Assembly: GCA_963736115.1 (NCBI GenBank)
Contig: CAVTNR010000019.1
Span: 36,461 to 100,460, forward strand
DNA: 64,000 bases
Direction of reading: 5' to 3'
Source of the DNA: an uncultured bacterium
GTDB taxonomy: Bacteria; Zhuqueibacterota; QNDG01; DTFT01
Shown in pieces: positions 20,876-47,813 of this stretch. The notes beneath the pieces were generated by a model, which was not told the origin of the DNA, searched no databases, and worked only from the letters and a program-made list of their open reading frames with translations. A program made the position numbers and the translations under genes. How positions within the stretch are numbered: position 1 is the first letter of the stretch; every line of letters begins with the position of its first letter.

Positions 20876-20889
20876 TAGTATTCCCTCAT

Positions 20890-20928
20890 GTAGGTCCGAT
20901 ATGCCGAGCGTAGCGAGGCTATCGGACA
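20890..20928 (+). repeat. GTAG-REP downstream of RAYT
   Basis: GTAG-GTCCGATATGCC-GAGCGTAGCGA-GGCTATCGGAC imperfect hairpin. Confidence 0.9.
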
Positions 20929-20932
20929 TCAA

Positions 20933-25707: not shown

Positions 25708-28700
25708 TCACCGGTTCACCGCCCACAGGAGTTCCACCTTCCACGAGCCATCCGCCTGTCTTTCCCGCATCGCCTTGCGGGGGTAACCCGTGGCCGTGTA
25801 TCCGTTCATGGTGAAATTCAGGCTGTAGCTCCACCAGAAGGGCACGGGGATATCCAGATGATCGCCGGTATAATGGGCGCACGCCCACTGGCGGCCGTGC
25901 CTCCATTCGATCCGGTACGGATCTTCCACCTTCACTTCGTTTTTAATCTGCACGCCCACGTCCCAGACCAGGTCCTCGGCGGGCGTAATCTCCGGACTGT
26001 AGTGGTACTGGATGAACACGTCGCCGAGCGTTTCGATTCCCCTCTTTCGGAGGTAGGATTCGAGCCTGCGGATCGCCTCGTCCTCTCCTTTCCAGTCCCC
26101 CTTGCAGGGGAGGATCAGTTCAAGACATTCCTTATCGGAACGGAAGAACACCTCGACTGGCGGGTACGGATCTTTCATGCGCTCCACGGGCAGTTCCGCC
26201 ACGAGGCGTTCCGGTTCGCGGTTCATTTCCGGAATACCGCCGGTCCAGATCAGAACCTGCGGATGCAGGATGCGGTACTGGTTGTGGTAGGCCCATGCCG
26301 CCATTTGCATTGAGAACGTCTTCTGATCGAACCCTTTCCGGTACTGGATGCGGACCACGTTCCGGACGGGAACCCGTTCGCACTTGAACGGCGGCTTTAC
26401 GGCTGCGCTGTCCGCGACGGGAAAGCCCGCTTCCCACTGCAGCTCAGTCTGGTTCACCGTCTCAACGCTGTAATACTGCCGGGTAAACGGCGTTCCGGCC
26501 GGCTGGATGCCGAGAGCCTTCAGGGTATTCAACAGCTTCTCGAACACCACCGGATGCTGGGCCAGGGATCCGCTGACCGGGAGGAGGACCGCCCAGTAGG
26601 GATTCGTCGATTCGACCCGGAAGAGAGGTTTTGAGTCGTCCGTGGCCGAAAAGCCGGAGAAAAATCCGGAAAGCCTTTCCTTCCAGCCGGGCGCGGAATC
26701 GGTAGCCTCCGCATTCCCCGTGCTGGAAACAAACGAGCCGGCCACGTCGGAATTGACGATCAGCGCCTCCGTGAATCCGCATTGCACCGCTTGCTTTTTC
26801 AGAAGTTCGGCCTCCGCAAGGGTCCGGCAGTCCCCGATACGGATCATGCGGTTCGGCGGTTCGAATATCAGGTAAACCGGCGTTTTCAATTTCGACATCG
26901 CATCGTCCCATGTCTTCCGTGCGATTTTTTCTTCGGTCGTGGAGACGAGCTGGACGCGGTATCCCCGGAGCGCCGTGGTGCGGTTGTCAGGACCGGTGGA
27001 CTCTTCAGAGAATCGGTTTCTGCCGGACGGTGTCCCGGAAGAATAGTCGGCCGGAAATCGTCTGCCCCGCGCGGCCACTGCTTCTCCGTACGCCTGCATG
27101 CCTTCGGCGAATTCCCCGACTGAAACCACAGGCATGAACCATTCGGTTTTGCGTATCCGGCCTGCGTTCCGGCGAGGGCCGTCCTCCCAGGCCTGGCCGA
27201 CCGGACCGGCGATCAGAAAACCGCTCATTAACGTCCGGGTGATAAAGGCCGCGGCCGGGAATTCCTGATCCGGCGGATACTTGAAATCCACGGCAGCGAT
27301 GGTGTCCTTCTCGAAATACCGGAGGACAAACGGCGGATCCACTCGGAGATCCGTTCCCGGTGGATTCAGTTCGCATGCGATTTCCCACTGCAGTTGGTCG
27401 GGAGTCACCTCGGACGGATTGCTGTAAAAGAGCCGGAACCACCGGTTCGTCGCCGGAAGTCCCTTCTCGCGGATGATCCGCTTCATCCGTGACCGCGCGT
27501 CGTCCAACCGGGAAAGCGGACCGGTCACCGGTAGAGTCAGGGCCAGGACGGCCTCGGTTTCCCGGAATTGAACGTCCAGTCCCGGGTAACCTTCACCCGG
27601 CCTGAATGCCTGAATCCGCATCTCAGTGTTCTGCCAGAAAGGTTTCGACCCGTCCCAGTTACGAAACACTTCCACTGCGGGCGGGAAGGCGGGAACCAGG
27701 CCCTCGGCCTGAACTGCTTCCACGAAGGCTTTCCAGGTTCCAACCGTGGTCAGCATCCCCTGAACATCCGTCACGGCCTCCCGGAGTTCTGGGATGCGGG
27801 CGATTTCGAGCGGCGGTTTCGCTTCGGCGTCCGGGGATACCGGGACTCCCACTTCCCATATGCTCCGCTCGTCCGGCACTTGCTGGCCGTCCGTCCATAC
27901 GCGGAAGAAGAAGTCCCCGCGGGGCTTGAGGCCCTGCTTCTGCATGCGTTCCTTCAATTCCGTCAGAGCCCCTTCGAGCTGGGCATTGATGCGTCCGAAG
28001 CGGGTCAGCAGGACCACCGTCCGCGGCTCCGTGGTCTCCAGCCGAATGCGGAAGTCCGCGGGTTCGGCCTGGCCGCCTTCCGTGACGTTCAGAACGACGG
28101 GCCCCTCGGTGCTGAATTGAATGGTTCGGACCGGATCGTCCGGCAGGAGGGACACGGAGCGGGGCGACATGGGCAGGAACGCGGCCGCGACGAAGAGACT
28201 CGCGCCGGCGGACGCCGCTGGAATCCACCGGCGCCGCTTCCAGACATCCTTCTCCAGCCATTTCAGCCGCGACACCAGCCGGAACGGCTCCTCGAACACG
28301 CCGAGCAGGCCGAGTCCGGGTTCGACGTTCTCGGTCAGGAGGTCCTTGGCGGTATTCAGCAGGGTGTCGCGGTATCCGCGGGTTTTTTCGCGCAGGACGC
28401 CGGCCACGCTGAGGTCGCAGCAGATTTCACGAACGTGCTTCATCTGGCGGCGCGCCCAGATCAGCAGGGGATTGAACCAGTAGACCACATGGAGCACCAG
28501 GTACAGGCCGTGCATCCACAGGTCGCCCCGCTTGAGATGGCTGAGCTCGTGCAGGAGCACATGACGGGCCTCGTCACGCGACAGATTTTTCAGATAGCCC
28601 GATGGGAGCAGCAGCACGGGCCTGAACATACCGTACACGGCGGGTGTGGCCGCGTCCGGAGCGAATACGATGGCCGGGACGCGGCCCAGCCGCAGGGTTT

Positions 28701-29247
28701 TTGCGGTTTCGACCAGCATCCGGTAAAACCAGTCCGGAACACGGTCGTCGCGGTGCAGGCGGTGCCAGCGTCTCAGGCGCGCCATTTTCAGAATCAGCAG
28801 GAAGGCGAACATGGCCATACCGCCGATCCAGACGAGAAAAACCATGGTTTTCGCGGTCAGGCCCGCGGCCGCGCTGTCCCCGGCCGGGACCGATGACGTT
28901 CCGAACACGCCGGAGAGCGGCATCCGGTCCGGGCGTCGTGCGGTTTCCGGTTCCAGCCGTACGGATGAAGCGGCAGGTACGAGCTTTTCAACCGCGGTTC
29001 CGGTCACCGCGGACCGGAGCTCCGGTTCGACGCGGGAGAATACGCTGAATGGAGAGGCCAGGGTCGGGGGCAGGAGCAGTTTCAGGAGCACCAGCAGCCA
29101 CACCGCGTACCGCACCTGCGGCCACACCCAGCGCCGGCCGGCCCAGTCCAGAACTCCGATCAGAACAATGAGCAGGCTGACCTGCCAGAACATCGGCGCC
29201 ATCCAGGCCCACCAGATTCCGGCCCAGTTATTGAGTGTCGCGGCCAT
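25708..29247 (-). CDS. BlaR1/MecR1-type M56 metallopeptidase fused to four GyrI-like domains and a SPOR domain
   Basis: N-terminal TMs, TPAVYG..RP.LLLP, HELSH.KRGD, WFNPL and REICCD. Four ~150-aa repeats each contain W(E/D)(V/I/A)G/A, with a GYRVQL..IRIG SPOR-like segment between repeats 2 and 3. Confidence 0.85.
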   Translation of the reverse strand: MAATLNNWAGIWWAWMAPMFWQVSLLIVLIGVLDWAGRRWVWPQVRYAVWLLVLLKLLLPPTLASPFSVFSRVEPELRSAVTGTAVEKLVPAASSVRLEPETARRPDRMPLSGVFGTSSVPAGDSAAAGLTAKTMVFLVWIGGMAMFAFLLILKMARLRRWHRLHRDDRVPDWFYRMLVETAKTLRLGRVPAIVFAPDAATPAVYGMFRPVLLLPSGYLKNLSRDEARHVLLHELSHLKRGDLWMHGLYLVLHVVYWFNPLLIWARRQMKHVREICCDLSVAGVLREKTRGYRDTLLNTAKDLLTENVEPGLGLLGVFEEPFRLVSRLKWLEKDVWKRRRWIPAASAGASLFVAAAFLPMSPRSVSLLPDDPVRTIQFSTEGPVVLNVTEGGQAEPADFRIRLETTEPRTVVLLTRFGRINAQLEGALTELKERMQKQGLKPRGDFFFRVWTDGQQVPDERSIWEVGVPVSPDAEAKPPLEIARIPELREAVTDVQGMLTTVGTWKAFVEAVQAEGLVPAFPPAVEVFRNWDGSKPFWQNTEMRIQAFRPGEGYPGLDVQFRETEAVLALTLPVTGPLSRLDDARSRMKRIIREKGLPATNRWFRLFYSNPSEVTPDQLQWEIACELNPPGTDLRVDPPFVLRYFEKDTIAAVDFKYPPDQEFPAAAFITRTLMSGFLIAGPVGQAWEDGPRRNAGRIRKTEWFMPVVSVGEFAEGMQAYGEAVAARGRRFPADYSSGTPSGRNRFSEESTGPDNRTTALRGYRVQLVSTTEEKIARKTWDDAMSKLKTPVYLIFEPPNRMIRIGDCRTLAEAELLKKQAVQCGFTEALIVNSDVAGSFVSSTGNAEATDSAPGWKERLSGFFSGFSATDDSKPLFRVESTNPYWAVLLPVSGSLAQHPVVFEKLLNTLKALGIQPAGTPFTRQYYSVETVNQTELQWEAGFPVADSAAVKPPFKCERVPVRNVVRIQYRKGFDQKTFSMQMAAWAYHNQYRILHPQVLIWTGGIPEMNREPERLVAELPVERMKDPYPPVEVFFRSDKECLELILPCKGDWKGEDEAIRRLESYLRKRGIETLGDVFIQYHYSPEITPAEDLVWDVGVQIKNEVKVEDPYRIEWRHGRQWACAHYTGDHLDIPVPFWWSYSLNFTMNGYTATGYPRKAMRERQADGSWKVELLWAVNR

Positions 29248-30604: not shown

Positions 30605-30911
30605 GAAGGAGTCGGGTGGACCGGGATCGGTTGACGGCGTGTTGTGGGTCAGACCGCCTTTGATGATTCCTGAGCAGCAGAACGCGGGATTGCATGACGA
30701 TCTCAGAACCGAAGGTCCGGAGGCGGGATTTTGGGAATTTGCGCAAATTGGTTAAAGAATTGCAATTTTTGGCTTTCTTTTCTGGTTCCTGTGTTTTATT
30801 TTAAAACCGAATCAATCATTCCTCATTCCCGGTGACTCATTGTAACTCATTTTCTCTGCACAGGATTTCAAAGCAGAGAATAGTAATTTGTTGTTATATT
30901 TGATAGCGTTT

Positions 30912-30927
30912 AAGTAATCCATTACTT
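30912..30927. promoter_or_regulatory. Palindromic LacI-like operator upstream of the TBDR
   Basis: AAGTAAT-CC-ATTACTT, 30 nt before the ATG. Confidence 0.55.
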
Positions 30928-30956
30928 TGGCGTTTAATTTCTACAAGGAGGCAGTC

Positions 30957-33919
30957 ATGCGGGCGCAAGGATTTTTGGATCGTCTCCAATGGAGCGGTCT
31001 GTGCCTGGTTTTTGCCGCGACCATGGCATTCGCAGGCAACACGGGAAAGATCTCCGGTGTTGTTTCGGATGCCGGCGGTCGCACCGGGCTTCCCGGAGCA
31101 AACGTCATTATTGAAGGCACCGCGATCGGGGCCGTGGCCGACCTGGATGGTCGTTTCGCCATTCTGAACGTCCCGCCCGGCATCTACCGGGTCAAGGCCA
31201 GCATGATCGGTTATCGGACGATGATCGTCCAGAATGTCCGCGTCTCCGCCGATCTCACTACCGCGCTCGACGCAGCGCTTCAACCCACCACTCTCGAGTC
31301 AGGCGAGACTGTGACCATCACGGCCGAGAGGCCGCTGATCCAGATGGACAAGACCTCGTCGCTCGTCTCCGTGAGCAGCGAAGAGATCAGGAACCTCCCG
31401 GTTCAGAGCATGAACGATGTTCTGGAACTGCAGGCCGGAGTCGTGCGGAGCGGAAACGATTTCCATATCCGCGGCGGCCGGGCAGGGAGGTGTCCTACTG
31501 GGTGGACGGCGTCGCCACCAACGAAGTGTACGGCGGCGGAAACGCCGTCACGGTCGAGCGGTCGGCGGTTCAGGAGATGCAGGTGGTCAGCGGCACGTTC
31601 AATGCCGAATACGGCAACGCCATGTCGGGCATCGTCAACCTGATCACCAAGGAGGGCGGTCCGAAATGGGAGGGACAGCTGAACGTCTATACCGGCGATT
31701 ATCTGAGCGACGACAAGGTGTATTCCGTGCTGAAGGGGGTCGGGACGCGATGGGACGCGGCGGAACAGAAAACGACGGCTGTGGAGCGTCTCGAAAATCC
31801 GCTTCGGAATTTCAACCCGACGATGAACGCCGAACTCAACCTGAGCGGACCGGTTCCCCTCACCAACCGGAAACTCTCACTGCTCGTGAACGGACGCTTT
31901 TTTTCGCAGGAGGGATACCTCTACGGACGGCGATGGTACTACCCCCAGGGGATCCGCGGCGACAGCGCGCTGGTCCCGCTGAGTCCGTACGAATCCTCCT
32001 CCGGCATGGGAAAGCTGAGCTACCGGTTGAGTTCCGGAATCAAGGCCAGTTACAGTTTGTTTCTCAACCGAAGCCGTTCGGAACACTACTACAATCACGC
32101 CTTCAAATACAATCCGGACGGGACCGCCGGCGGGAGGGGCTGGGGGAACACCCACCTGTTTTCCTGGAACCATGTGCTGTCATCCAAAACCTTCTACGAG
32201 GCCCGTGTTTCCCGCGTGCAGAGCAGTTATCGCAACTACCTCTACGAAAACGCGACCCTGTCGCCGACGTACCGCATCTATGTGATCGGCAATGAAACCC
32301 AGCCGGCGCAGATTCTGCCCTATGATCTCAATTCGGCCGCCGCGGACTCGGCGCTCGAGGCCCTGGCAATTGAGGGAAGGTCGTTCACCTACGTTCCTGA
32401 TGCCGGGACCCGCGACGGGTATGTACACCCCGATTCGCTGAGGGATCCCGCGTCCTACAGCTTCTGGCGCGCGGGCACTCAGGGAGGCCGGTCGAATCGG
32501 ACCACGTCTTACTGGATCGCCAAAATCGATCTGACCAGTCAGCTCAATCCCATCCATCAGTTCAAAGCCGGTTTGGAAGCGCGGCTGCACGAGCTGAAAT
32601 ATGACAATTACACGCTGCAGCCGGCCCGGAAGGAGGGCAAGGACGAACCCATCGTGCCCTATCAGCCCTGGGTGCCGCCGTCATCCAACATCTATCACGA
32701 TCTTTACACCCGCCGGCCGCGCGAGTTCTCGGCCTACATCCAGGACAAGATCGAGCTGAAGGACATGATCGTGAACATCGGACTGCGGTTCGACTACTTC
32801 GACGCCAACGCCTCGATGCCGGTCGATCCGCGGGATCCCAGCATCTATTCGCCGTTTCAGGATCAGTTCCTGTACGTCAATCCCGCCGCTGATTCACTCG
32901 TGGAATATACCCCCGACCAGCGACGGGCCTTCATGCAGGAAAAGGTGGGCGGTAAAACCCATTTGTCTCCCAGGCTCGGGGTCGCCTACCCGATCACGGA
33001 CCGCGGCGTGGTCCATTTTTCCTACGGGCACTTCTTCCAGATCCCCGAATTCCAATACCTGTACGCGAATCCCGACTTCAAGCTGATCGTCGGCGGCGGG
33101 CGGAACATACTCGGCAACGCCGCGCTGAATCCCCAGAGGACCGTGGAGTATGAAATCGGATTTCAGCAGCAGCTGTCCGACCAGGTCGCCGTCGACATGA
33201 CTCTTTTCTACAAGGACATCCGGGACTGGGTGGGCACGGGTCCCGTGATTGAGACGCTGAAACCCAGCGTATCCTACGCGTTGTACGAGAACAAGGATTA
33301 TGCGAACGTGTACGGTCTGACGCTGAACCTGGACAGGCGGTTCCAGGGCCATTTCGGGGCCGGACTCGCGTACGCCTTCCAGATCGCGGAGGGGACCTAT
33401 TCCAATCCCACCGACGCCTTCAACGCCCTTCAGAACCTGCAGGAACCCCGGCTGGCGATGATCCCCCTGAACTGGGACCAGCGTCACACGCTCACCGGCA
33501 TGGGGACGACCGGATTCGCGGGCTGGATCGCCACCCTCCAGTACAAACTGAGGTCGGGGCGTCCCTACACGCCGTCGTACGCGAGCGGATCGTTGGTCGG
33601 AGAGTCCACTTACAGCGGGCTCCGGGACAACAGCGGCCGCCTTCCGAACACCAGTCAGTTTGACCTGATGCTCCACAAGCGGTTCAGCGTCGGAACCGCG
33701 AACGTCGGATTCCTGGTCACCGTGTACAATCTATTCGACCAGAAGGGCGAAACCTACGTCTACACCGAGACCGGTTCGGCCCGTTACAGCGCCAATATCG
33801 ATCCGCAGACCATTCCGTACGACGCAGCGCGGGTGGGAACGGTGGAGGATTACCTGCGCCAGCCGACCTGGTTCATCCCGCCGAGGCATATCCAGGCCGG
33901 TTTCACGGTTGAATTCTAA
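30957..33919 (+). CDS. TonB-dependent receptor with N-terminal CarboxypepD_reg-like domain; one frameshift at ~31486
   Basis: GKISG.V.D..LPGANV, plug IRGGR|AGEVSYWVDG (restored by adding one G to GCAGGGAG), SGTFNAEYGNAMSG, SPRLG.AYPI and a C-terminal VEF. Confidence 0.9.
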
Positions 33920-33943
33920 TCGTCCGCGGAGAAGGAGTACGAC

Positions 33944-36900
33944 ATGAAAAAGACCACAATCGGCTGGATCGCGGCCCTCTTCCTGGGTGTCGCCGTCCGG
34001 GCCGTCGCTCAGGACTCAATGGCCCGGCTGCATGGTGATGAAGACAACAGCGTCAGCGGCCTGCACTCGGGCAACCAGATCAAGGCCAGCTTTTACAATG
34101 ACGGACTGCTCGGCAAGCGGTACGTGGCCGTCACCGACATCGGCGGCGAATGGCCGATCAATTCAGGCCATGTCTACATCAACCAGCAGGTCATGTTTGT
34201 CGGGGCCGAGGTCAAGAACGACGAAGGCAGCACCATCCATATCGTTTCCGAGGGGAACGGATGCTCGGCAGGCAACTCCAACAACGCCGACTCGGGGGAT
34301 TCGGGCCCCAACGGCGAATGGTATTCCATGACGCCGCTTCCGGGATTCCACAATCCCCAGCCGCCGGCGGAAAAGAGCGCCAAACCCCGCATCGCCATGA
34401 GCCATTGGGAATGGTCCTGGCCGTCCAGCTGGCCCGACAAGACCGAGGACGTCACGGACCCGGGATGGCCGGGTTCCTGGAACGGGTATTTCGGCAAGGG
34501 CGTGATGAACGCGGACCAGGAAAGCATGTATTACATGGATGACTACAACAACCGGGAATTTTCATACTATCCCGATTCCACGGACACCCAGCGGCGCGGT
34601 CTGGGGCTCCGCGGGCAGGTGCGCGGTTTTCAGTGGTCCAACGTCCTGGTGGAGGACATTCTGTTCCTCCTGTACGACGTGAAGAACATCGGCACCCGGG
34701 ACCTGACCAAGATGAATTTCGGCATCATGTCGGGGCCGATCATGGGCAACACGGCGACCGGGGGCGGAAGCGAGGGCTCGGACGACGGCGGCGCTTACGA
34801 CCTCGAGATGGAGATCGGCTACCACCTCGACCAGGACAACCTCGGGTACGGCGGATGGAACGTGGGATTCCTGGGGCAGGCCTTCTTTGAGAGTCCGGGC
34901 AACCCCTATGACGGCATCGACAATGACGGGGACGGGATGAACGGCCCCGGTCCGGTCATCACCCAGAGTCTGTTCGACCCCCGTCCGGTTCAAGCCGGCG
35001 ACAACGTGATCGTGATCGACTATGTGACGTTTGCCCGAATCCATCGCGCAGATGCCCGCCGCGGGTGCTGGACATTCCGTTCCAGGGCCGCATCGCTTCA
35101 CATCGACGCGGGACAGGATCTTGTCGAGATCGCCGAACAACCTGTTCGACGACAACCTGAACGGCATCATCGACGAAAACAACGGCTCCACATTCGGCGA
35201 GGGCGACGCACGCCGTTGTCGCGGTTCCTGTACGAGGGCCTGAAATACATCGACTACTTCACGGGCGCCGGAAGCACAACAGCCTCGTTGACGAGCGGCG
35301 TGACGACGGCATCGACAACGACGGCGACTGGGACATCCTCACCGATGACGTGGGCATGGACGGCGTCGCGCGGTCCGGTGATGCCGGCGAAAAGGACGGT
35401 GTGCCCACGTCCGGAAGGGGCACGCTCTTCCGGGCGAACCGCATATCGACGTCACCGACATCAACGAGTCCGACCAGATCGGCCTCGACAGCCTTCAATA
35501 TCTACACGCCCTGGACGCTCTATCCGCTGTCGGATGACGAGAAACTCTGGACCGCCATCGCGCCCGGCTACCTGAACGCGATCGGGCAGATCGGCGACAC
35601 CGACATCCTCGTCGGTTCCGGGTATTTTCCGCTCAAGGTCGAACAGACCGAGCGGTTCTCCGTCGGCGTGATATTTTCCAGCAGTCTGGAAGATCTGTAC
35701 CGGAACAAGCGTTACGCGCAGAAGACCTATGTGGAGAACTACAATTTCTCCAAGGCTCCGATCATCCCGACCTGACCGCCGTGGCCGGCGACGAGCGGGT
35801 GACGCTGTACTGGGACGACGTGGCGGAAGGGTCCATCGATCCCATCACCGGAAAGGATTTCCAGGGTTACCGGATCTACCGGTCCACGGATCCCGGATTC
35901 AACGATATGACGTCGATCACCGACGGATTCGGATCCGCATCGTACCGGAAACCGGTCGCCCAGTTCGATCTCGAGGACGGGATCACTGGGATTCTCGGGA
36001 ATACATGTCCGCGGGGTTCATTTCTGGCTGGGCGAGGACACCGGTCTCCAGCATGTCTGGACGGATGAATCGGTCCGGAACGGTCAGAAATACTATTATG
36101 CCGTGACATCCTACGACAGTGGATCCGATTCCCTGGGCATCGCGCCGACGGAATGCTCGAAATATATCTCCATTTCACAGGACGGCGCGATTGACAAAGG
36201 GAAGAACGTGGCCATCGTGCGGCCCGAGGCGCCCTCCGCCGGATATCGGGCCAGCGGACCGGACCTCGTGCGGCTGCTGCCCGGCGGGGCGACGAGCGGA
36301 ACCGTCGAAATGCAGGTGATCGATCCCGCGCTGGTCAAGGGCGGCCATCTCTATCGCATTACCTTCGAGGAAAGCCTCAAAGTGGTCAAGAGCTTCGCGG
36401 ACACGCTGTATACGAAACGGCTGACGTTCACGGACGTCACGGCCGGGTCCGTTCTATACGGTCCCGAGGACTGGACGGGACTGGACCTGACGCTTCCCGT
36501 GGTCGACGGTTTCGAACTCACGCTTCGAAACGAGGCTTCGCTGGCGTTCGATTCGGCTTCGAGCGGCTGGAGCCGGCAGGGGCTCTACGCCTTCACCGTG
36601 ACGCCCTACGCCTATCGGGAGGAGAAGGAAGGGCCGCTGGCCCGCGACTTCGATGTGGTGTTCGGCGGGTTTGCCGGTTTCGATTCCTCCCGTACGTTTT
36701 TCAGGAGGGGGAGGGACCTGGCGGGAAAACCGGTCAATTTCACGGTCCTGGACGCGGAGACGCATGAGCGCATGCCGTTCGGCTTCTACGAGGCGGACGG
36801 GAACGACGGCGTTTTCAGCGGATACACCGTGAAAACCACGACGGACGAGATCACGGTTCTGAACAGGGGCTCGGACGGCGCCCTCCTGCCAAGCTGGGTC

Positions 36901-37373
36901 ATCAAGCTCGCAACCAGCGCGGACGATTCGGTCCGCTCGAATCCGGCGGAAGGGATACCCTGGCCGTGCGCCTCAGCAAGCCTTTCCTGGCGGCGGATAT
37001 TTTCGAATTCACCATGAAGAGCGAATCGATTGACGCGGAGGCGGTGAAGGATGCGATGGGCCGCATCCAGGTGGTGCCGAATCCGTACATCGTGGCCAAC
37101 TCCTGGGAAGCCCAGAATCCCTACGCGAACGGACGCGGGCCGAGGGAAATACACTTCACTCACCTTCCGGCGGTTTGCACGATCAAGATCTTCAATCTGC
37201 GCGGCCAGATGATCCGAACCCTCGAGCACGACTCGCCGGCCATCGCGGACGGCACCGAGATCTGGGACATGCAGACGAAGGACAACCTCGACGTCGCCTA
37301 CGGTGTGTACATCTATCACATCAACGCCGGGAAGACCGGGCAGAAGATCGGGAAGTTCGCGATCGTCAAATAA
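33944..37373 (+). CDS. Large secreted protein (~1140 aa) with DGIDNDGD acidic repeats and a T9SS-like C-terminal sorting domain; multiple frameshifts
   Basis: Signal peptide, two DGIDNDGD motifs, FnIII-like VTLYWD..FQGYRIYRS, and C-terminal VVPNPY..IKIFNLRG..GVYIY..KFAIVK. Coding sense hops between frames at 35040-35490, ~35772, ~36000 and ~36958. Confidence 0.75.
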
Positions 37374-37377
37374 AAAA

Positions 37378-37491
37378 AGTTCATAGTTCATGGTTCATAG
37401 TTCATAGTTGGAAGAGAATTAAGAACAGTTATTAAATGAAGCGACAAAACACCTTTTTTGACTATGAACTATGAACTATCAACCATGAACT
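37378..37491. repeat. Inverted heptamer arrays (AGTTCAT)4 ... (ATGAACT)4
   Basis: 37378-37405 and 37464-37491; same unit as 4326-4461. Confidence 0.88.
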
Positions 37492-37512
37492 GCCAATAAA
37501 AGGAGACCCGAA

Positions 37513-38528
37513 ATGAAGAAACTTTTACTGATAGGGATGGCCGTGCTCCTGTCCTTCCCGGCATACGGCCGGGAGGTGACGAAGGCGGGGACGACGTCGG
37601 CGGCGTTTCTGAACATCGACCAGGGCGCTCGTGGGGTCGGGATGGGGAGCGCGTTCGTGTCGGTGGTGGACGACATCAGCGGGGTGTACTGGAATCCGGC
37701 TGGGATCGCCCGGATGAAGGGCGGCCAGGCGTCGTTCAGCAACACGCAGTGGATCGCGGACATCGCGTACAACCACGCGGCGGTAGCGGTTCCGGTGGGT
37801 GGCGTGGGGGTTCTGGGCGTGAGCGCTCAGTTCCTGACGATGGGGGACATGGACCGGACGACGACGATGGAGCCGGAGGGGACCGGGGAGACGTTTTCGG
37901 CCGGGAGCTACGCGTTCGCGCTGAGCTACGCCCGGAATCTGACGGACCGGTTTTCGATCGGGTTCAACGCGAAGTACGTTCAGGAGAAGATCTTTCACAT
38001 GAACGCGCGGGGCATGGCGTTCGACGTGGGGACGCTGTTCGACACCCAGCTGGAGGGACTTCGTCTGGGGATGAGCATATCGAATTACGGAACGAAGATG
38101 CAGATGGGCGGCCAGGACGCGCTGGTTCAGAAGGACATCGACGCGACGGTGTCTGGGAACAACCCGAACATCAACGCGAATCTTCAGACGGACAAGTGGG
38201 ACATGCCGCTTTTGTTCCGTGTGGGGATGAGCGTGGACGTTCTGAAGGGTCTGTACGACAGCAATCTGACGCTGGCGGTGGACGCGCTTCATCCGAACGA
38301 CGACGTGGAGAGCGTGAACGTGGGCGCGGAGTACGTGTTTCACCGGATGGTGGCTCTGCGGGCGGGATACAAGTCGATGTTCGCGAAGGACAGCGAGGAG
38401 GGTCTGACGTTCGGCGGGGGCCTGCAGTACCGGATGTTCGGAACATCGTCCCTGATGCTGGACTACGCGTGGGCGGATTTCGGGGTGCTGAAGGAGATCC
38501 AGAAGTTCTCGATCGGGATGACTTCTGA
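37513..38528 (+). CDS. PorV/PorQ (UPF0164)-like outer-membrane barrel; end probably affected by a 1-nt deletion
   Basis: GTTSAAFLNI..GARGVGMG.A, YWNPAG, FSIGFNAKY, FDVG, LRAGY and DYAW.DFG. ATG ACT TCT GA would read M-T-F-stop with one extra T. Confidence 0.88.
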
Positions 38529-38530
38529 AA

Positions 38531-38560
38531 AGTTCATAGTTGATAGTTCATGGTTCATAG
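38531..38560. repeat. Heptamer array (AGTTCAT)4 directly after the PorV-like gene
   Basis: AGTTCAT AGTTGAT AGTTCAT GGTTCAT. Confidence 0.85.
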
Positions 38561-38655
38561 AAAAATGAGTGTTTCGGGATAAGGGCTGGGTGTCATCCCC
38601 GAGCTGTTCTATCGGGGATCCAGGGTGGGGTGGACAATCCCGTGATGGGTTATCA

Positions 38656-38695
38656 AAAAGACCTGAAAGGTTCGGAAGACCTTTCAGGTCTTTTT
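38656..38695. terminator. Bidirectional hairpin terminator / ACCTGAAAGG repeat
   Basis: AAAAGACCTGAAAGGT-loop-ACCTTTCAGGTCTTTTT; a similar hairpin lies at 43668-43702. Confidence 0.75.
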
Positions 38696-39052
38696 CGAAG
38701 CGCCGATAGGACGATGAGAGAAAATGATTGATGGAAATGAGGGACGGATTCGTGGTATTTACATTAATAAAAATTAAGTACCTTCATAGTGATTCGCAAA
38801 ATTTATTCATGATTGTAGCAATTGTTTAAGCAAAAAAATATCATGCGTTTAGGGCGTTTTATGTGATTTCATCTCAATCCGGCATCAGGGTCTCAGGAAA
38901 ATCTATACTCAGGAACCCTGGACGATAAAAGCAGTAAAATTAGATAGAATATCGCTTAAAAAGTTGTTACATTGGTTTGCTTCCGGTAACAATTCCGAAA
39001 AGAACAGTCTATATTCAACCTGATCAATCATTTAACAGCAACGGGAAAAACC

Positions 39053-40531
39053 ATGCGATTCAATCGTTCAGCGGTTCTTTTCACGATCCCGGCCGTCCTC
39101 CTTCTGATCGCCGCGGGATGCTCCAGGAAGTCCAATGAAGATCCGGTTCTGGCCCGCATCGGCGACAGAACCATCACCAAAAAACAGTACCAGTACCGGA
39201 CCGAGCTGACGATCCGTCCCCGGTATCCCGGCCTAAAAAGCGACTGCACGAAAGTCGAACTTCTCGACAATCTGATGATGGAAAAACTGTTCGCCATCGA
39301 GGCGGGAGATGATTACTCCCTTCTGAAACGCCGGTCCTTCCGCGATCACATCCGCGGCATCCGGGAACAGAGCATGCGGGAGGAACTGTACGGGGAAGTC
39401 GCAACGAAAAAAGTGAACGTGGACACGTCGGATCTGAAACAGCGGTATCGTCTGGCAGCCCGCGAATACGAGGTCCAGTTCTATACGATACGGAACAAAG
39501 AGACAGCCAGAAAAATTCAGGAACAGATACTGCTGAATCCGCAAAAGGCCGGTCCCATCTTCGACGGGCTGGGGCCGGAGGGATCGTCCATCCCGAAACA
39601 CGCGGTGAAGTGGAAAGATCCTGAAAACGATCTGGTGCACGAGGCCCTGTTCCGCAGGCCCGTGCCCGTGGACACGGTCATCGGCCCCATCCGCATCGGC
39701 CCGAACGAGCACCTGATCATGAAGGTGGCCGGGTGGACGGATTTCCCGGTCATCGGCGGGGAAGAGGTCCAGATGCGGTGGAACGAGGTGAAGGAGAAAA
39801 CCGTCCAGCGCAAGGCGCGCGCCGAATGGGAGCGGTACATGGGGCGCCTGCTGGGCGGAAAGGCCATCAAGTTCAACCCCCCCGTTTTCCGCCGGATGGC
39901 CGACATGGCCTGGATGATGTACGGCGCCGCGTCCGATTCGCAGATTCAGGAGATCAACAAGAATTTCTTCAACGCCCTGAAGGATTCCGCTACGGTCGAT
40001 CCGTACGGGAACGAAGAAGCTTTCCTCAAAGCGTCGTTTTTTGAGGTGGAAGGCAGGACCTGGACTGTCGATCAGTTCAAGCGCGAGCTCGCCGCGCATC
40101 CCCTGGTGTACCGGAGAAAGAACATCCCGAAAGAGGCTTTCCGCGCGGAATTCAAGAACGCGGTGACCGATTTCATGCGGGACCAGTTCCTGAACCGGGA
40201 GGCCTACAAACGGGGTCTCGACAAGCGGGATTTCGTGCGCTCGAACGCCGCCGAATGGCAGGATGCGCTGGTCGCGGTTCATTTCAGGAACGAGACGCTG
40301 AACCGGCTGGCGGAGAAGCACGGCCTGGAGGGACAACCGACGCTCCTGAAGCCGGTATATGAGGCTTACGTGGACAGCCTGTGGACGGCCAACCGGAGCC
40401 GGATTTCCTGGGATGCGGAAATACTGAAGACGATTCGGCTGTCCAGCATCGACTTCTACGCGTACAAGCCGGGCGTGCCGTTCCCGGCCGCGACGCCCCC
40501 GTTTCCGACTCTCATCACGAAATCGCACTGA
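39053..40531 (+). CDS. Lipoprotein, SurA/PrsA-like foldase candidate
   Basis: Lipobox AAGC, VLARIGDRTIT.., L.NL..EKL.A.EA and a second helical repeat. No clear PPIase motif. Confidence 0.6.
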   Translation: MRFNRSAVLFTIPAVLLLIAAGCSRKSNEDPVLARIGDRTITKKQYQYRTELTIRPRYPGLKSDCTKVELLDNLMMEKLFAIEAGDDYSLLKRRSFRDHIRGIREQSMREELYGEVATKKVNVDTSDLKQRYRLAAREYEVQFYTIRNKETARKIQEQILLNPQKAGPIFDGLGPEGSSIPKHAVKWKDPENDLVHEALFRRPVPVDTVIGPIRIGPNEHLIMKVAGWTDFPVIGGEEVQMRWNEVKEKTVQRKARAEWERYMGRLLGGKAIKFNPPVFRRMADMAWMMYGAASDSQIQEINKNFFNALKDSATVDPYGNEEAFLKASFFEVEGRTWTVDQFKRELAAHPLVYRRKNIPKEAFRAEFKNAVTDFMRDQFLNREAYKRGLDKRDFVRSNAAEWQDALVAVHFRNETLNRLAEKHGLEGQPTLLKPVYEAYVDSLWTANRSRISWDAEILKTIRLSSIDFYAYKPGVPFPAATPPFPTLITKSH

Positions 40532-44536: not shown

Positions 44537-46063
44537 CTACTCCTTGAACCGCTTCCCGTCTATCTTGTAATTCCGGATTTTATATCCCAGGATGCGCTCC
44601 GTCGTGTCGAGCAGGCGCGCGGCCTTGGCGACGTTTCCGCGCGTGGATTTCAGCGCGTCCTGGATAAGTTCCTTCTCGAACGTGGCCACCGCGTCCCTGA
44701 GCGACCGGGTGTTCGTGGTGCCGCTGCTCTCCGCGGTCTGCAGTGTGGGGGGCAGGTGGTAGCTGTGGATGACCTGGTCCTCGCACACGAGCACGGCGCG
44801 TCCGACGCAGTTTTCCAGCTCGCGGACGTTGCCGGGCCAGTGGTACCGCATCAGCATGTCGATGGCCGGGGTGGAGATGCGCTTCACGGATTTCGCGTGC
44901 TGGCGGCTGTACTTCAGCATGAAGTGGTCGGCCAGGAGCAGGAGGTCGGTCTTGCGTTCGCGGAGCGGCGGCAGGACGATGGAGAACACATTCAGCCGGT
45001 AGTACAGGTCCTCGCGGAACTTACCGTCCGCCATGTTCCGCTCGAGGTCGGCGTTCGTCGCGGCGATGACCCGCACGTCCGCCCGGATGGTTTCCGTTCC
45101 GCCGACGCGCTCGAATTCCTGCTCCTGCAGGACACGGAGCAGCTTCACCTGGGTCATGGCGGAGAGCTCGCCGACCTCGTCGAGGAAAATCGTGCCGCCG
45201 TCCGCAAGCTCGAACCGGCCCTTTTTACGACCGACGGCGCCCGTGAACGCGCCTTTCTCGTATCCGAAGAATTCCGACTCGATGAGGTTTTCCGGAATGG
45301 CCGCGCAGTTCACGCGGACGAAGGGCTTGTCCGCGCGCGGCGAGTTGTAATGGATGGCCTCGGCGATCAGTTCCTTGCCCGTGCCGGTCTCGCCGCGGAG
45401 CAGGACCGTCGTCTGGGTCGGGGCAACCGTGGCCACCTGCTCGTACACGTCCCGCATCTCATTGCTGTTGCCGATGATGTTGTGGAAGCTGTACTCCTCC
45501 TGCAGTTTCCGCTTGAGCGTCACGTTTTCATCCAGCAGGCTTTGGCGCTGGTTTTCCATGACATGGCGGACCCGGATGGGCTGGAGCAGGGCCGAGGCGA
45601 CCAGGGTCAGAAACTGCAGGGTGCCGTCATAGTCCCGCTTGGAATGGTGGGCGAAATTGACGATCAGCACACCGAGCGCCTTGTAATCGAGCATGATCGG
45701 GATGCCGAAGAAGCTCTGCTCGCCGGCCTCCTTGTCCCACGACGCCATGCGGTTCAGAAACAGGGGCTCCTTGCTGACCTGCGGAACGACAATGGGCTTG
45801 CCTGAAGCGACGACCCGGCCGGTCAGTCCGTCTCCCACGGTGAAACGAGTGTCGAGCACGTTCGATTTGTAACCGATGGAGGCCTCCAGGGTCAGCGCCG
45901 TTCCGGAATCGTCCATCAGGAAAATAGCCCCGGACCGGATTTTATAGGAATTCAGCAGGATCTGGAGGGTCGCGTGAAGCGCATCGTGGAGCTCGAGCGT
46001 GCGGCCGACGGCCTGGTTGATCTCGATCAGGAGGGGAAAACTCTTGGCGGTGACGGTGTTCAT
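44537..46063 (-). CDS. GAF-domain sigma54-dependent activator (NifA-like)
   Basis: N-terminal [41 protein letters not shown] and a Fis-type HTH. Confidence 0.93.
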
Positions 46064-46212: not shown

Positions 46213-46264
46213 TTGACATTGCGGATTCATTTGTTTATTTTAGACTTGTACTAAACGGTTTAGT
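46213..46264 (+). promoter_or_regulatory. Sigma70 promoter plus LacI-like palindrome upstream of the MFS transporter
   Basis: TTGACA about 17 nt before a TATTTT-like -10; ACTAAAC-G-GTTTAGT at 46250-46264. Confidence 0.55.
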
Positions 46265-46280
46265 TCATTATGGAGGAACC

Positions 46281-47567
46281 GTGGCCAAAAAAACCTTCCG
46301 AAACTTCCGCTGGGTCATCTGCGGGCTTCTTTTCGCTGCCACTACCATCAATTACATCGACCGGCAGGTCATCAGCATTCTCAAACAGAACGTCATCCTG
46401 ACCTGGCCCGGCTGGTCCGAACTGACCTACGGCCAGGTCGTCGGCTATTTTCAGCTCGCTTACGCCGTGATGATGCTTTTCGCGGGCGCCCTCATCGACC
46501 GGATCGGCATCCGCAAGGGATTCGCCATCGCCATCGTCTGGTGGAGCCTGGCGGCCATGGGGCACGCGCTGTCCGGCACGGTGTTCGCATTCGGAGCCGC
46601 GCGCATTCTGCTCGGACTGGGAGAGGCCGCGAATTTCCCCGCGTCCATCAAGGCCATCGCCGAGTGGTTCCCGAAGAAGGAAAGGGCGCTGGCGACAGCG
46701 GTCTTCAACTCCGGAACGAACATCGGGGCATTTATAACACCGATAGCCGTGGCCTGGATACTGGAGTCGCTGGGGCACTGGCAGTGGGTGTTTGTTCTCA
46801 CCGGCGCGCTGGGATTCATCTGGCTGGTGTTCTGGCTGCTGATGTACGACCATCCGGACCGGCACTCCCGCGTTTCGGCATCGGAGTTGGCGTATATCCG
46901 GAGCGAGCCGCCCGAAAAGGCGCCGCAGCAGTCCGTTTCCGAGATGTTCAAGACATGGACCGGCCTGCTGGGTCACAAGCAGACCTGGGCTTTTGCCGTC
47001 GGCAAAGGCATCACCGATCCGGTCTGGTGGGTGTGGCTGTTCTGGGTTCCGGGATTCCTCTATAAAAAATTCGGCGTCAACATCAAGGATCTGTGGTGGC
47101 CCATTCTGATCATCTACAGCATGGCCAGCGTGGGCTCCATTATCGCCGGATGGCTGCCCGGGGCCTTTCTCAAGGCCGGATGGACCGTCAACCGGGCGCG
47201 CAAGACCGCCATGCTCATCTGCGCCCTGTGCGTGGTCCCTGTGATCTACGCGGGAGTGACGGACAGCATCTGGACCGCCGTCCTGCTCATCGGCCTGGCC
47301 TGCGCGGGTCATCAGGGATGGTCTGCAAACATCTTCACCCTTAGTTCCGACATGTTCCCCAAGCGCACCGTGGCCTCGGTGGTGGGCATCGGCGGATTCA
47401 TGGGCGGGCTCGGCGGATACTTCATCTCGAACATCGTGGGCTGGATTCTCGACAAGAATCCGAACAACTACCTTCCCATTTTCATCACGGCGGGATGCAT
47501 CTATCTGATCGCGCTTGCCGTCATTCATGTGTTCGCTCCGAAACTGGAGCCGGTGAAACTCAACTGA
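46281..47567 (+). CDS. ExuT-like (ACS family) MFS hexuronate transporter
   Basis: RW.I..LLF.ATTINYIDRQ, GEAANFPA..K..AEWFPKKERALAT..FNSG, TDPVWW and HQGWSAN motifs. Confidence 0.9.
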   Translation: MAKKTFRNFRWVICGLLFAATTINYIDRQVISILKQNVILTWPGWSELTYGQVVGYFQLAYAVMMLFAGALIDRIGIRKGFAIAIVWWSLAAMGHALSGTVFAFGAARILLGLGEAANFPASIKAIAEWFPKKERALATAVFNSGTNIGAFITPIAVAWILESLGHWQWVFVLTGALGFIWLVFWLLMYDHPDRHSRVSASELAYIRSEPPEKAPQQSVSEMFKTWTGLLGHKQTWAFAVGKGITDPVWWVWLFWVPGFLYKKFGVNIKDLWWPILIIYSMASVGSIIAGWLPGAFLKAGWTVNRARKTAMLICALCVVPVIYAGVTDSIWTAVLLIGLACAGHQGWSANIFTLSSDMFPKRTVASVVGIGGFMGGLGGYFISNIVGWILDKNPNNYLPIFITAGCIYLIALAVIHVFAPKLEPVKLN

Positions 47568-47798
47568 CGCCTTCGTCCCCGGCCGTCGATGCGGCCGCGG
47601 GAACTTCGGGATAAAAAAAGCCGGGATACCGCATTCCGATTTCGGGACGGTTTCCCGGCTTTTCTTACGGAAAAGTCCCCGATTCGGCGGCATCCTACAG
47701 AATTGTTTTTTGCCGCCCGTTCTTCCCCGATCCCCGTCTTCCACGTAAACCGCTGATCCCGCGTGTCTTGAGCGCGAACACGTCTGTCCGTTCCGGAC

Positions 47799-47813
47799 TG
47801 GCACTCACTTTGC
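47799..47813 (+). promoter_or_regulatory. Sigma54 -24/-12 promoter for amtB-glnK
   Basis: TGGCAC-TCACT-TTGC matches the consensus; 60 nt before the ATG. Confidence 0.85.

Follow-up and report, generated by a model that had tools for sequence, protein, structure and literature searches.

Organization of the locus

The DNA examined here (the window) is a stretch of 64,000 nucleotides (nt) from an uncultured bacterium, lying at G000:C19:36461-100460 in a genome (G000) of 3.34 Mb, 31 contigs and 87.5% completeness. It carries co-directional genes for a TonB-dependent receptor, a large secreted protein, an outer-membrane barrel of the PorV/PorQ family and a lipoprotein (Table 1). A first-pass annotation, made from the letters alone, had described these four genes and a palindrome in front of them as a candidate uptake cassette that works without SusD, and each of the elements was found where it had been placed. 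The receptor, large-protein and barrel genes are a unit and not a chance neighbourhood, and the window locus almost certainly belongs to a conserved cassette family. This family is widespread, yet unstudied; it probably serves to take hold of sugar polymers and bring them into the cell, in those relatives of the Bacteroidota that appear to be without SusD.

Table 1. Positions of the features of the cassette and of its flanks, numbered from the first letter of the window
Feature	Position	Strand	Basis and remarks
Upstream conserved block	30739..30785	+	Alignment of the window with G001, G002 and G003
Palindrome AAGTAAT-CC-ATTACTT	30912..30927	+	Sequence; about 30 nt 5' of the receptor start codon
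TonB-dependent receptor	30957..33919	+	Pfam and NCBIfam; about 990 amino acids read through; N-terminal carboxypeptidase-regulatory-like domain
Large secreted protein, about 1140 amino acids	33944..37373	+	Translations and frameshift-aware alignment to P0059
Tail of the large protein, last 135 residues, frame intact	36966..37373	+	Linker helix, then a seven-strand beta-sandwich C-terminal domain ending GKFAIVK
PorV/PorQ-family 14-strand-type outer-membrane barrel, 351 amino acids, signal peptide	37513..38568	+	NF033709
Intrinsic terminator, 20-bp hairpin between A and T runs	38653..38697	+	RNA folding
Lipoprotein, 492 amino acids, lipobox LLIAAG|C	39053..40531	+	Translation; paralogy; phmmer links

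The receptor gene begins with an ATG (30957) preceded, 5 nt upstream, by AAGGAGG, and is divided into two open reading frames (ORFs) by one frameshift, a single-base deletion near 31483. Its product scored 62.7 bits on CarbopepD_reg and 87.2 bits on TonB_dep_Rec_b-barrel; at 87.2 bits on PF00593, against a cut-off of 27, it is a member of the TonB-dependent receptors. The plug domain gave a weak match in the broken N-terminal fragment (17.2 bits; cut-off 23.9), and the intact receptor of an orthologous locus had sequence matches in the PDB to the plug regions of CirA, YncD and PqqU. Assignment of the receptor to SusC/RagA (TIGR04056, cut-off 368) was tried and rejected. The orthologue in a genome of the same genus (G002) scored 49.9 bits, a paralogue on contig C3 59.6 bits and the window fragment 54.3 bits, and the partial match of the orthologue and the paralogue spanned model positions 2-209 only.

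No SusD-type family was found with Pfam among the proteins of the locus. PF07980 (SusD) also gave no match in the 87.5%-complete genome, while the control was positive in Bacteroides thetaiotaomicron; the lack of SusD that the annotation reported for the locus is upheld. Downstream of the barrel gene the terminator folded with -30.6 kcal/mol (z -5.45), and none of 200 shuffles folded as well. Judged by this fold, the terminator marks the end of the receptor, large-protein and barrel unit.

Conservation of the cassette

Paralogous cassettes were located in the genome by tblastn and ORF maps. Seven close cassettes (C19, which is the window copy; C3; C10 twice; C27 three times) and five distant ones (C15, C4, C2 and C12 twice) were found, and 11 of the 12 showed a PorV/PorQ-family barrel. 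In the distant type the middle protein is of about 700-850 amino acids, and there is an extra lipoprotein with a TIG domain.

A profile, A1, was made from four intact paralogues of the large protein. At E<=1e-5 it matched at least 2264 proteins among 8000 candidates scored, almost all of them 'hypothetical'. Named A1 records came from KSB1, Calditrichota and Ignavibacteria. Among the named records of the large protein that were listed, a single one was titled 'T9SS type A sorting domain-containing protein', another 'fibronectin type III domain-containing protein', and all the rest 'hypothetical protein'. Of 621 pattern matches in the species-genome collection, 601 encoded a relative.

From these 601 relatives, 80 loci were kept for counting, and receptor and barrel profiles were built from the genome's own paralogues. 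The loci were labelled KSB1, Calditrichota, Neomarinimicrobiota, Ignavibacteria/Melioribacteraceae/Kryptonium, Rhodothermales, Stahlbacteria, Bacteroidota and others. A receptor lay directly upstream of the large gene in 70 of the 71 loci that had at least 600 nt of upstream sequence. Of the 68 assessable loci, 67 had an adjacent barrel gene, which in five stood between the receptor and the large gene. Where both flanks were present, the full trio was found in 58 of 59 loci. The exceptions were L028, in which a second receptor came next and no barrel was seen, and L074, which had only 843 nt upstream. Together with the roughly 12 copies in the genome, these counts bear out the recurring triplet that the annotation had predicted. 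Its restriction to non-Bacteroidetes lineages was too narrow, since loci labelled Rhodothermales, Ignavibacteria and Bacteroidota carry the trio as well. Within the phylum of the window genome, the large-protein family was found in 147 of 151 sampled genomes, a tally that includes the unpublished genomes G144 and G087, and in 102 of the 105 genomes of high quality.

Genes beside the cassettes

Several paralogous cassettes of the genome stand next to genes of carbohydrate metabolism. The C3 copy has an AraC-type response regulator, a glycoside hydrolase (GH) of family GH97 and a protein with a carbohydrate-binding module (CBM) of the CBM4_9 type; a pectate lyase lies beside one C10 copy; the C27c copy is accompanied by a LacI regulator, a GH95 and a paralogue of the window lipoprotein; and the C4 and C2 copies each have a LacI neighbour.

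For the 80 loci, a neighbour was defined as the nearest co-directional ORF of at least 250 amino acids within 500 nt of the edge of the trio. Fifty downstream neighbours were scored. Starch-binding modules of the CBM20/48/53 type were present in 15 of them, most with an ordinary type IX secretion system (T9SS) tail. Six were GH94, while GH10, GH66 and a sugar-type solute-binding protein occurred once each, so that the gene directly downstream was carbohydrate-related in 24 of the 50 loci. A further 15 had an ordinary T9SS tail only, five had PPIC rotamase/SurA_N domains, one had an S74 domain and five had nothing recognized. Upstream, 45 neighbours were scored: 20 PPIC rotamases with or without SurA_N, three homologues found by phmmer that had no domain, five GH13, one GH43 with CBM6, five CBM9 proteins with a T9SS tail, four LacI regulators, five proteins with the tail only and two others. 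The trio is constant while the neighbouring enzymes change with the polymer; the pattern is therefore like that of polysaccharide utilization loci (PULs).

Domains of the large protein

The large protein starts with a signal peptide, carries the motifs NPYDGIDNDGDG and DDGIDNDGDWD, and ends in a tail of the form VVPNPY...GVYIYH...GKFAIVK. No Pfam or NCBIfam family was found for its body. Because the window gene is broken, the orthologue P0059 was modelled from 54 aligned sequences (mean predicted local distance difference test score, pLDDT, 81.7; predicted template modelling score, pTM, 0.74), and the model was compared with about 48,000 PDB representatives. It was almost wholly beta. Residues of about 30-750 matched, with Z of 17-20.7, supersandwich domains of the galactose-mutarotase-like kind, which in several enzymes stand ahead of the catalytic domain. 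The best match was 9ju0, a dextran dextrinase (Z 20.7 over 259 residues; root-mean-square deviation, rmsd, 3.0), with 1lf6, a GH15 glucoamylase, at Z 19.9 and GH94 phosphorylases at Z 18.5-19.4; 2cqs gave Z 18.8, and domains of GH116 and GH65 were matched also. Beyond the supersandwich the model contained beta-sandwich domains only, and neither a catalytic (alpha/alpha)6 nor a TIM-barrel domain. Acidic loops of the DGIDNDGD type, which follow a DxDxDG-type pattern, fell in a stretch of low confidence (about 440-520), and they may be calcium sites. Foldseek with the whole model returned long, poorly superposed matches to chains of fibronectin type III (FN3) domains (TM 0.05-0.09), which indicates FN3 or immunoglobulin (Ig)-like domains.

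The tail was modelled from the window's own last 135 residues with 51 sequences (pLDDT 83.3). Its first-ranked Foldseek match was PorZ (E 2.8e-4). On superposition with the C-terminal domain (CTD) of PorZ (5m11, residues 684-776) it gave Z 12.4 and an rmsd of 2.0 Å over 90 residues at 24% identity, about 3 Z units above the generic Ig-like entries. Other CTDs followed at lower values (PorU, Z 8.5; mirolase, 8.4; RemA, 8.1; NucA, 7.9). In the model the C-terminal seven-strand Ig-like beta-sandwich superposes on solved CTDs, as expected of a type A CTD, and the T9SS-type tail proposed from the letters is thereby supported at the level of the fold. PF18962 had no match in the tail at E<=0.01, and the only CHU_C match scored 16.5 bits against a cut-off of 27. 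On the models, then, the large protein is predicted to consist of a galactose-mutarotase-like supersandwich, FN3/Ig-like domains and a PorZ-like CTD.

The barrel and the type IX secretion system

The barrel scored 207.6 bits on the PorV/PorQ family model NF033709, for which the cut-off is 90, and the barrels of six other cassettes scored 164-206.6 bits. It remained under the equivalog cut-offs for PorQ (NF033711; 105 vs 220), PorV2 (89.3 vs 325) and PorV (NF033710; 84.8 vs 250). Membership in PorP/SprF (TIGR03519) was tried and rejected, with no match at E<=0.01; the barrel of the distant C2 cassette reached 27.3 bits on that model against a cut-off of 90.55.

From about 37650 to about 38500 the window barrel gene was 97-100% identical in nucleotides to those of C27a and C27b (C27:137865-138755 and C27:129382-130434). 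In the same three cassettes the tails were 72-82% identical and the bodies 50-65%. The barrels may have been homogenized by gene conversion or copied very recently, with the tail partly included, or the likeness may be a repeat-related effect of assembly. As the barrels are nearly identical and the bodies divergent, the barrel cannot be matched to a single cargo body, and the conserved tail must be what it reads. Distances between tails and distances between barrels were correlated (r 0.70), and once the body of the same protein was controlled for, the partial correlation was 0.515, a value reached in none of 2000 permutations. For this comparison 45 of 50 rows were usable, the other five having stop codons within the 800 codons that precede the tail; because the rows are kin, the co-variation is weak support.

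The genome encodes SprA and PorU, each of which scored over its cut-off (SprA 823 bits, counting neighbouring matches; PorU 839.9 bits). The last part of the PorU model was matched about 50 more times, which suggests a like number of proteins with ordinary type A tails. A separate PorV candidate on C17 scored 242.5 bits, against the cut-off of 250.

In Porphyromonas gingivalis, it is suggested that PorQ and PorV keep PorZ and PorU at the cell surface, according to the portion of the report available (PMC5562754). By analogy, the tail of the large protein may be anchored on the barrel encoded beside it, a reading that we place evenly between acceptance and doubt. The barrel could instead be a dedicated shuttle that, like PorV, carries the cargo from the SprA translocon to PorU; the tail would then be cut and the large protein released, or attached to lipid or lipopolysaccharide (LPS), and the cassette would still serve nutrient capture. 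The same portion of the source describes PorV as a shuttle that binds CTD substrates (PMC5562754). A shuttle would also agree with the membership of the barrel in the PorV/PorQ family, with a PorU above cut-off, and with the occurrence of one barrel sequence in three cassettes, as though a common signal and not one cargo were being read. Against it stand the separate candidate on C17, a better fit to the PorV equivalog than the window barrel with its 84.8 bits, and the approximately 50 proteins with ordinary type A tails, which from these data have no known barrel of their own. The tail, moreover, is closest to the CTD of PorZ, a protein that keeps its tail. A shuttle is accordingly thought unlikely, and the anchor is carried forward below.

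The putative SurA-like lipoprotein

An AT-rich spacer separates the terminator from the lipoprotein gene, and coaE follows 3' of the latter. Lying 3' of a strong terminator, the lipoprotein gene is therefore a separate transcription unit here, and its inclusion in the window cassette by the first-pass annotation was corrected. The description of its product as SurA-like is supported indirectly, through its relatives. The window lipoprotein matched no Pfam family at E<=5, and its paralogue in the C27c cassette (33% identity) reached 15.7 bits on SurA_N_2, below the cut-off of 28.5. By phmmer, however, the lipoprotein was homologous to ORFs flanking the trio in 22 of the 80 loci, and many of these carry Rotamase (PPIC), Rotamase_2, Rotamase_3 or SurA_N domains. 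Its Atlas feature score to 'PpiC domain' clusters was 0.98.

A SurA-like gene directly adjoins the trio in 29 of the 80 loci. In 23 of these it is upstream, being the 20 PPIC rotamases and the three domain-less homologues of the window lipoprotein counted above among 45 neighbours. In six it is downstream, namely the five PPIC rotamases among 50 neighbours and L031, where the match is by phmmer alone and has no Pfam domain. A SurA-like gene thus appears, from these counts, as a frequent fourth member of the cassette.

Reading frames of the window copy

The large gene of the window lies in about 12 frame pieces. Its codon alignment to P0059 (1141 amino acids) covered 1137 codons, of which 1037 were identical, with no stops and 11 frameshift events; the amino-acid identity was 91%. 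The locus was compared with those of three genomes of the same genus (G001, G002 and G003), at about 89-90% nucleotide identity to the window. Their orthologues are intact, the receptor being one frame of 1000 codons and the large gene one of 1125-1149 codons. In the four-way alignment, 13 single-base indels were private to the window and none to any of the other three. The private deletions were at 31483, 35276, 35426, 35772 and 36951 and the private insertions at 35038, 35067, 35096, 35130, 35210, 35221, 35486 and 35987, so that 12 of the 13 fell in the large gene (35038-36951) and one in the receptor.

The intact state was found at three of the indel sites (35275, 35487 and 35770) in contigs from two public runs of one study. 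These contigs belong to relatives 88-99% alike, and no public run contained more than 0.18 of the sampled words of the large gene. As they do not derive from the source sample, they give no verdict between error and mutation, and stretches that lack coverage carry no meaning.

Substitutions private to the window were 12 nonsynonymous to 43 synonymous in the receptor and 25 to 43 in the large gene. In the other three genomes the private changes were 10-19 nonsynonymous to 36-72 synonymous (13-19 to 50-72 in the large gene). Purifying selection over most of the branch therefore follows from the counts. Other close copies of the large gene are also split into several ORFs (C27:139036-142529, C27:130597-133984 and C10:1265-4972). 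The receptors of these three cassettes are whole, as are SprA (an open frame of 2066 amino acids) and PorU (1316 amino acids); the frame breaks cluster in the large-gene family. The contigs pass across repeats with 100% identity over stretches longer than 600 nt.

The broken frames are most probably a local assembly error in a multi-copy family, rather than decay. Were the window copy instead a true pseudogene, the indels would be real mutations and the cassette dead in this strain. The private ratio of the large gene speaks on that side: at 0.58 it is about twice that of the orthologues (0.26-0.29), and it may reflect some relaxation, or errors. The 13 private indels themselves, their position outside homopolymer runs and the lack of enzyme partners beside the window copy would fit a dead cassette too. 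Decay that left 13 single-base indels, no stop in 1137 codons, no larger deletion and 91% identity would nevertheless be odd. The private changes of the receptor are as constrained as in the other genomes, and the splitting of the C27a, C27b and C10b large genes, beside a whole SprA and PorU, points to local trouble in assembling a multi-copy family. A pseudogene is for these reasons considered rather unlikely. If assembly error is accepted, the large gene of the window is real and is to be read through the indels, not discarded as fragments.

Proposed function

In the mechanism that we infer, the large protein would reach the periplasm by means of its signal peptide and would then cross the outer membrane through the type IX system, using its CTD. 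The CTD, being of the PorZ type, would stay uncleaved and would dock non-covalently on the PorV/PorQ-family barrel encoded next to it, so keeping the protein on the cell surface. There the N-terminal supersandwich, with its calcium-type acidic loops, would bind a polymer, most likely a glycan, and would pass it to the TonB-dependent receptor, which would come into contact with the large protein and import oligomers. The SurA-like lipoprotein may be a dedicated chaperone for the large cargo or for the two barrels. The annotation had pictured the large protein as a substrate-capture lid beside the receptor, a role that it may have.

A role of the cassette family in the uptake of nutrients, that is of glycans, is likely. 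The best explanation as a whole is a SusD-less, PUL-like uptake unit with a type IX-exported binding protein on its own barrel, and on balance we lean towards it. A wider proposal is offered tentatively and with more doubt than confidence. In phyla of the FCB group (Fibrobacteres, Chlorobi and Bacteroidetes) outside the Bacteroidia (KSB1, Calditrichota, Marinimicrobia, Ignavibacteria and others), a T9SS-secreted supersandwich protein with calcium-type loops, held non-covalently by an uncleaved PorZ-type tail in its own PorQ-like barrel and served by a dedicated SurA-like chaperone, may replace SusD as the partner of glycan-importing TonB-dependent transporters. This would be a second, independent 'utilisome', in which an attachment piece of the T9SS has been multiplied within each genome as a socket for nutrient capture.

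It was also considered that the large protein is not the binding partner of the receptor. It could be an enzyme or adhesin of unrecognized type, or the substrate of the window copy could be something other than a glycan, for instance peptides or a polymer of the cell envelope, and the linkage would then reflect co-regulation only. The body has no Pfam or NCBIfam family, supersandwich domains occur within enzymes, and the window copy has no carbohydrate-active enzyme (CAZyme) as neighbour; one related locus has an M24 peptidase upstream and one has an S74 domain protein downstream. The model, on the other hand, has only beta-sandwiches after the supersandwich, in place of a catalytic (alpha/alpha)6 or TIM-barrel domain. 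The strict adjacency of receptor and large gene (70 of 71), with short gaps across phyla, speaks for a unit rather than loose co-regulation, and the neighbours vary with the type of glycan while the trio stays constant. We regard this alternative as quite improbable and retain the large protein as the partner of the receptor.

Several observations weigh against the uptake unit as it is drawn here. A Pfam scan of the neighbours found no CAZyme or sugar regulator within about 10 kb of the window copy. The CAZyme neighbourhood anticipated in the first-pass annotation is thus seen around paralogues and related loci, as glycoside hydrolases, CBM proteins and LacI regulators, and not at the window, and for this reason the glycan substrate of the window copy is drawn from its relatives only. 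Led as it was by the C3 paralogue, which has a GH97 neighbour, the search profile biases the neighbour counts towards loci for alpha-glucans. The supersandwich fold by itself shows no sugar binding. The tail scored 20.9 bits on TIGR04183, the type A sorting domain, under the cut-off of 23. The sharing of one barrel among three cassettes fits a shuttle as well as an anchor. In L028 (3147-7966) and L032 (1-8688) the large gene is followed by the next receptor with no barrel between them, which suggests that some tandem cassettes may share a barrel encoded elsewhere. The raised private ratio of the window's large gene, given above, belongs here as well.

The secretion machinery counts partly on this side. 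The annotation had pointed to sprA and porKLMN homologues as a check, and of these SprA, and PorU with it, were found above cut-off. For GldK there were weak, FGE-sulfatase-like matches only (75 bits vs 350). GldL, GldM and GldN gave no match in the genome, and GldM none in 41 genomes of the phylum; the models for GldL, GldM and GldN gave no positive match in a control genome either, so that PorKLMN/GldKLMN were not found in a search that had no positive control. The T9SS motor may be too diverged for the models, or the lineage may drive the translocon differently.

Comparison with known systems

The loci of SusC and SusD are the textbook explanation of the dominance of Bacteroidota in glycan turnover. 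In the strict definition used by PULDB, a PUL has an adjacent pair of SusC-like and SusD-like genes, with CAZymes and a sugar-responsive regulator in the locus. The cassette resembles SusC/SusD (RagA/RagB) in that a receptor with an N-terminal carboxypeptidase-regulatory-like domain is encoded directly 5' of a surface partner. It is PUL-like also in the many copies per genome, each beside different CAZymes, CBM proteins and a LacI- or AraC-type regulator. The differences are in the parts. The genome has no match to SusD (PF07980), and the receptor fails the SusC/RagA model. The partner is an all-beta protein of 1140 amino acids with a signal peptide and a T9SS tail, whereas SusD is a lipoprotein of the tetratricopeptide repeat (TPR)-like kind. 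A third gene, for the PorV/PorQ-family barrel, is obligatory in the cassette and has no Sus counterpart. At the window copy there is no SusC/SusD pair and no CAZyme or regulator; CAZymes and regulators are present for paralogues and at many related loci. Taken strictly, neither the cassette nor its parts qualify as SusC/RagA, as a SusCD-type PUL, or as PorV or PorQ proper, and the cassette is described as one that works like these systems, not as one of them.

The attachment complex of the P. gingivalis T9SS (PorZ:PorQ and PorU:PorV) likewise joins a CTD-bearing surface protein to a PorV/PorQ-family barrel. Those pairs are single-copy housekeeping parts of secretion, whereas the pair in the window is multiplied and linked to a nutrient receptor. 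The match of the tail to PorZ covers PorZ residues 684-776 only, which are its CTD, and the body in the window is a supersandwich. The window barrel, for its part, is below both the PorQ and the PorV equivalog cut-off.

A precedent named in the annotation, SprB with SprF, proved to be misfiled. In the part of PMC9143113 that could be consulted, SprF is placed with the PorP-like proteins and SprB with those that have a type B CTD; PorU:PorV and PorZ:PorQ, as given in the accessible part of PMC5562754, are closer. SprB:SprF and PG1035:PorP do share with the cassette a dedicated, co-encoded barrel that keeps one large T9SS cargo on the surface, according to the same part of PMC9143113. Their barrels are of another family (the window barrel has no TIGR03519 match), and the tail in the window is of the type A or PorZ kind, not type B. 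BamG, a FadL-type barrel of the barrel assembly machinery (BAM) complex of Bacteroidota, is an attachment platform for surface lipoproteins, as stated in the available section of PMC12578637. On the BamG model the window barrel scored 19 bits against 250, and its linkage is with a receptor and a T9SS cargo rather than with BamA.

A literature search turned up no account of the trio of receptor, large protein and barrel. In the portion available of the Caldithrix abyssi genome paper, TonB-dependent receptors are mentioned only for B12 and thiamine. The accessible part of the Melioribacter roseus genome paper (PMC3534657) calls Mros0761-0759 'SusC, SusD and SusE' and places them beside GH13 and GH31. 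On that partial account, the layout of Mros0759-0761 resembles the trio with its usual alpha-glucan neighbours, and members of the present family may have been named there by analogy. A Melioribacter roseus record of the large protein was not named among the best 120 matches.

Sister phyla that abound in sediments, oceans and bioreactors degrade the same polymers as the Bacteroidota, and the window genome is one without a match to SusD. If the proposal is true, the trio would be a marker for substrate-specific uptake loci in metagenomes, as SusC/D pairs serve now. It would also show parts of type IX secretion put to a new use, multiplied as sockets on the surface, and a tractable test would be possible in cultivated carriers.

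DNA upstream of the receptor

The palindrome in front of the receptor, noted in the first-pass annotation as an operator, is real. It is kept in all three genomes of the same genus, with one mismatch in G003, and no other copy occurs in the genome at up to two mismatches. In RNA the same letters can form a hairpin of 6 bp, as part of a fold with z -2.2, and the palindrome may be an operator or a leader hairpin. As a family-wide operator it was rejected: it is absent 5' of six paralogous cassettes, and a site not common to these is therefore not an operator of the family.

Further upstream, about 170 nt 5' of the receptor start, a block of 45 nt is almost invariant in the four genomes of the genus, while the DNA between it and the palindrome varies among them. 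The block contains two short palindromes, TTGCGCAA (30739-30746) and AATTGCAATT (30758-30767), and may be a promoter or the site of a regulator. It is absent upstream of the paralogous cassettes, and no regulator gene adjoins the block or the palindrome. Another hairpin, TTCTCTGC-N13-GCAGAGAA (30852-30880), was dropped as a regulatory candidate, not being conserved in G001 and G003. A scan for consensus promoters and terminators returned sites no more numerous than in shuffles and missed the terminator of Table 1.

Other genes of the window

The genes around the window copy encode a radical SAM enzyme, a BlaR1-type sensor, CoaE, a mannose-1-phosphate guanylyltransferase-like protein and EIIA of the phosphotransferase system (PTS). 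On the minus strand, 25708-29247 encodes a protein of 1179 amino acids with a BlaR1-type M56 peptidase domain at its N-terminus (136 bits) and GyrI-like modules at its C-terminus. Two further long ORFs on the minus strand, 17420-20932 (1170 amino acids) and 46260-47804 (514 amino acids), had no Pfam family at E<=1e-5; the second of them adjoins a sigma-54 activator with a GAF domain (44537-46063).

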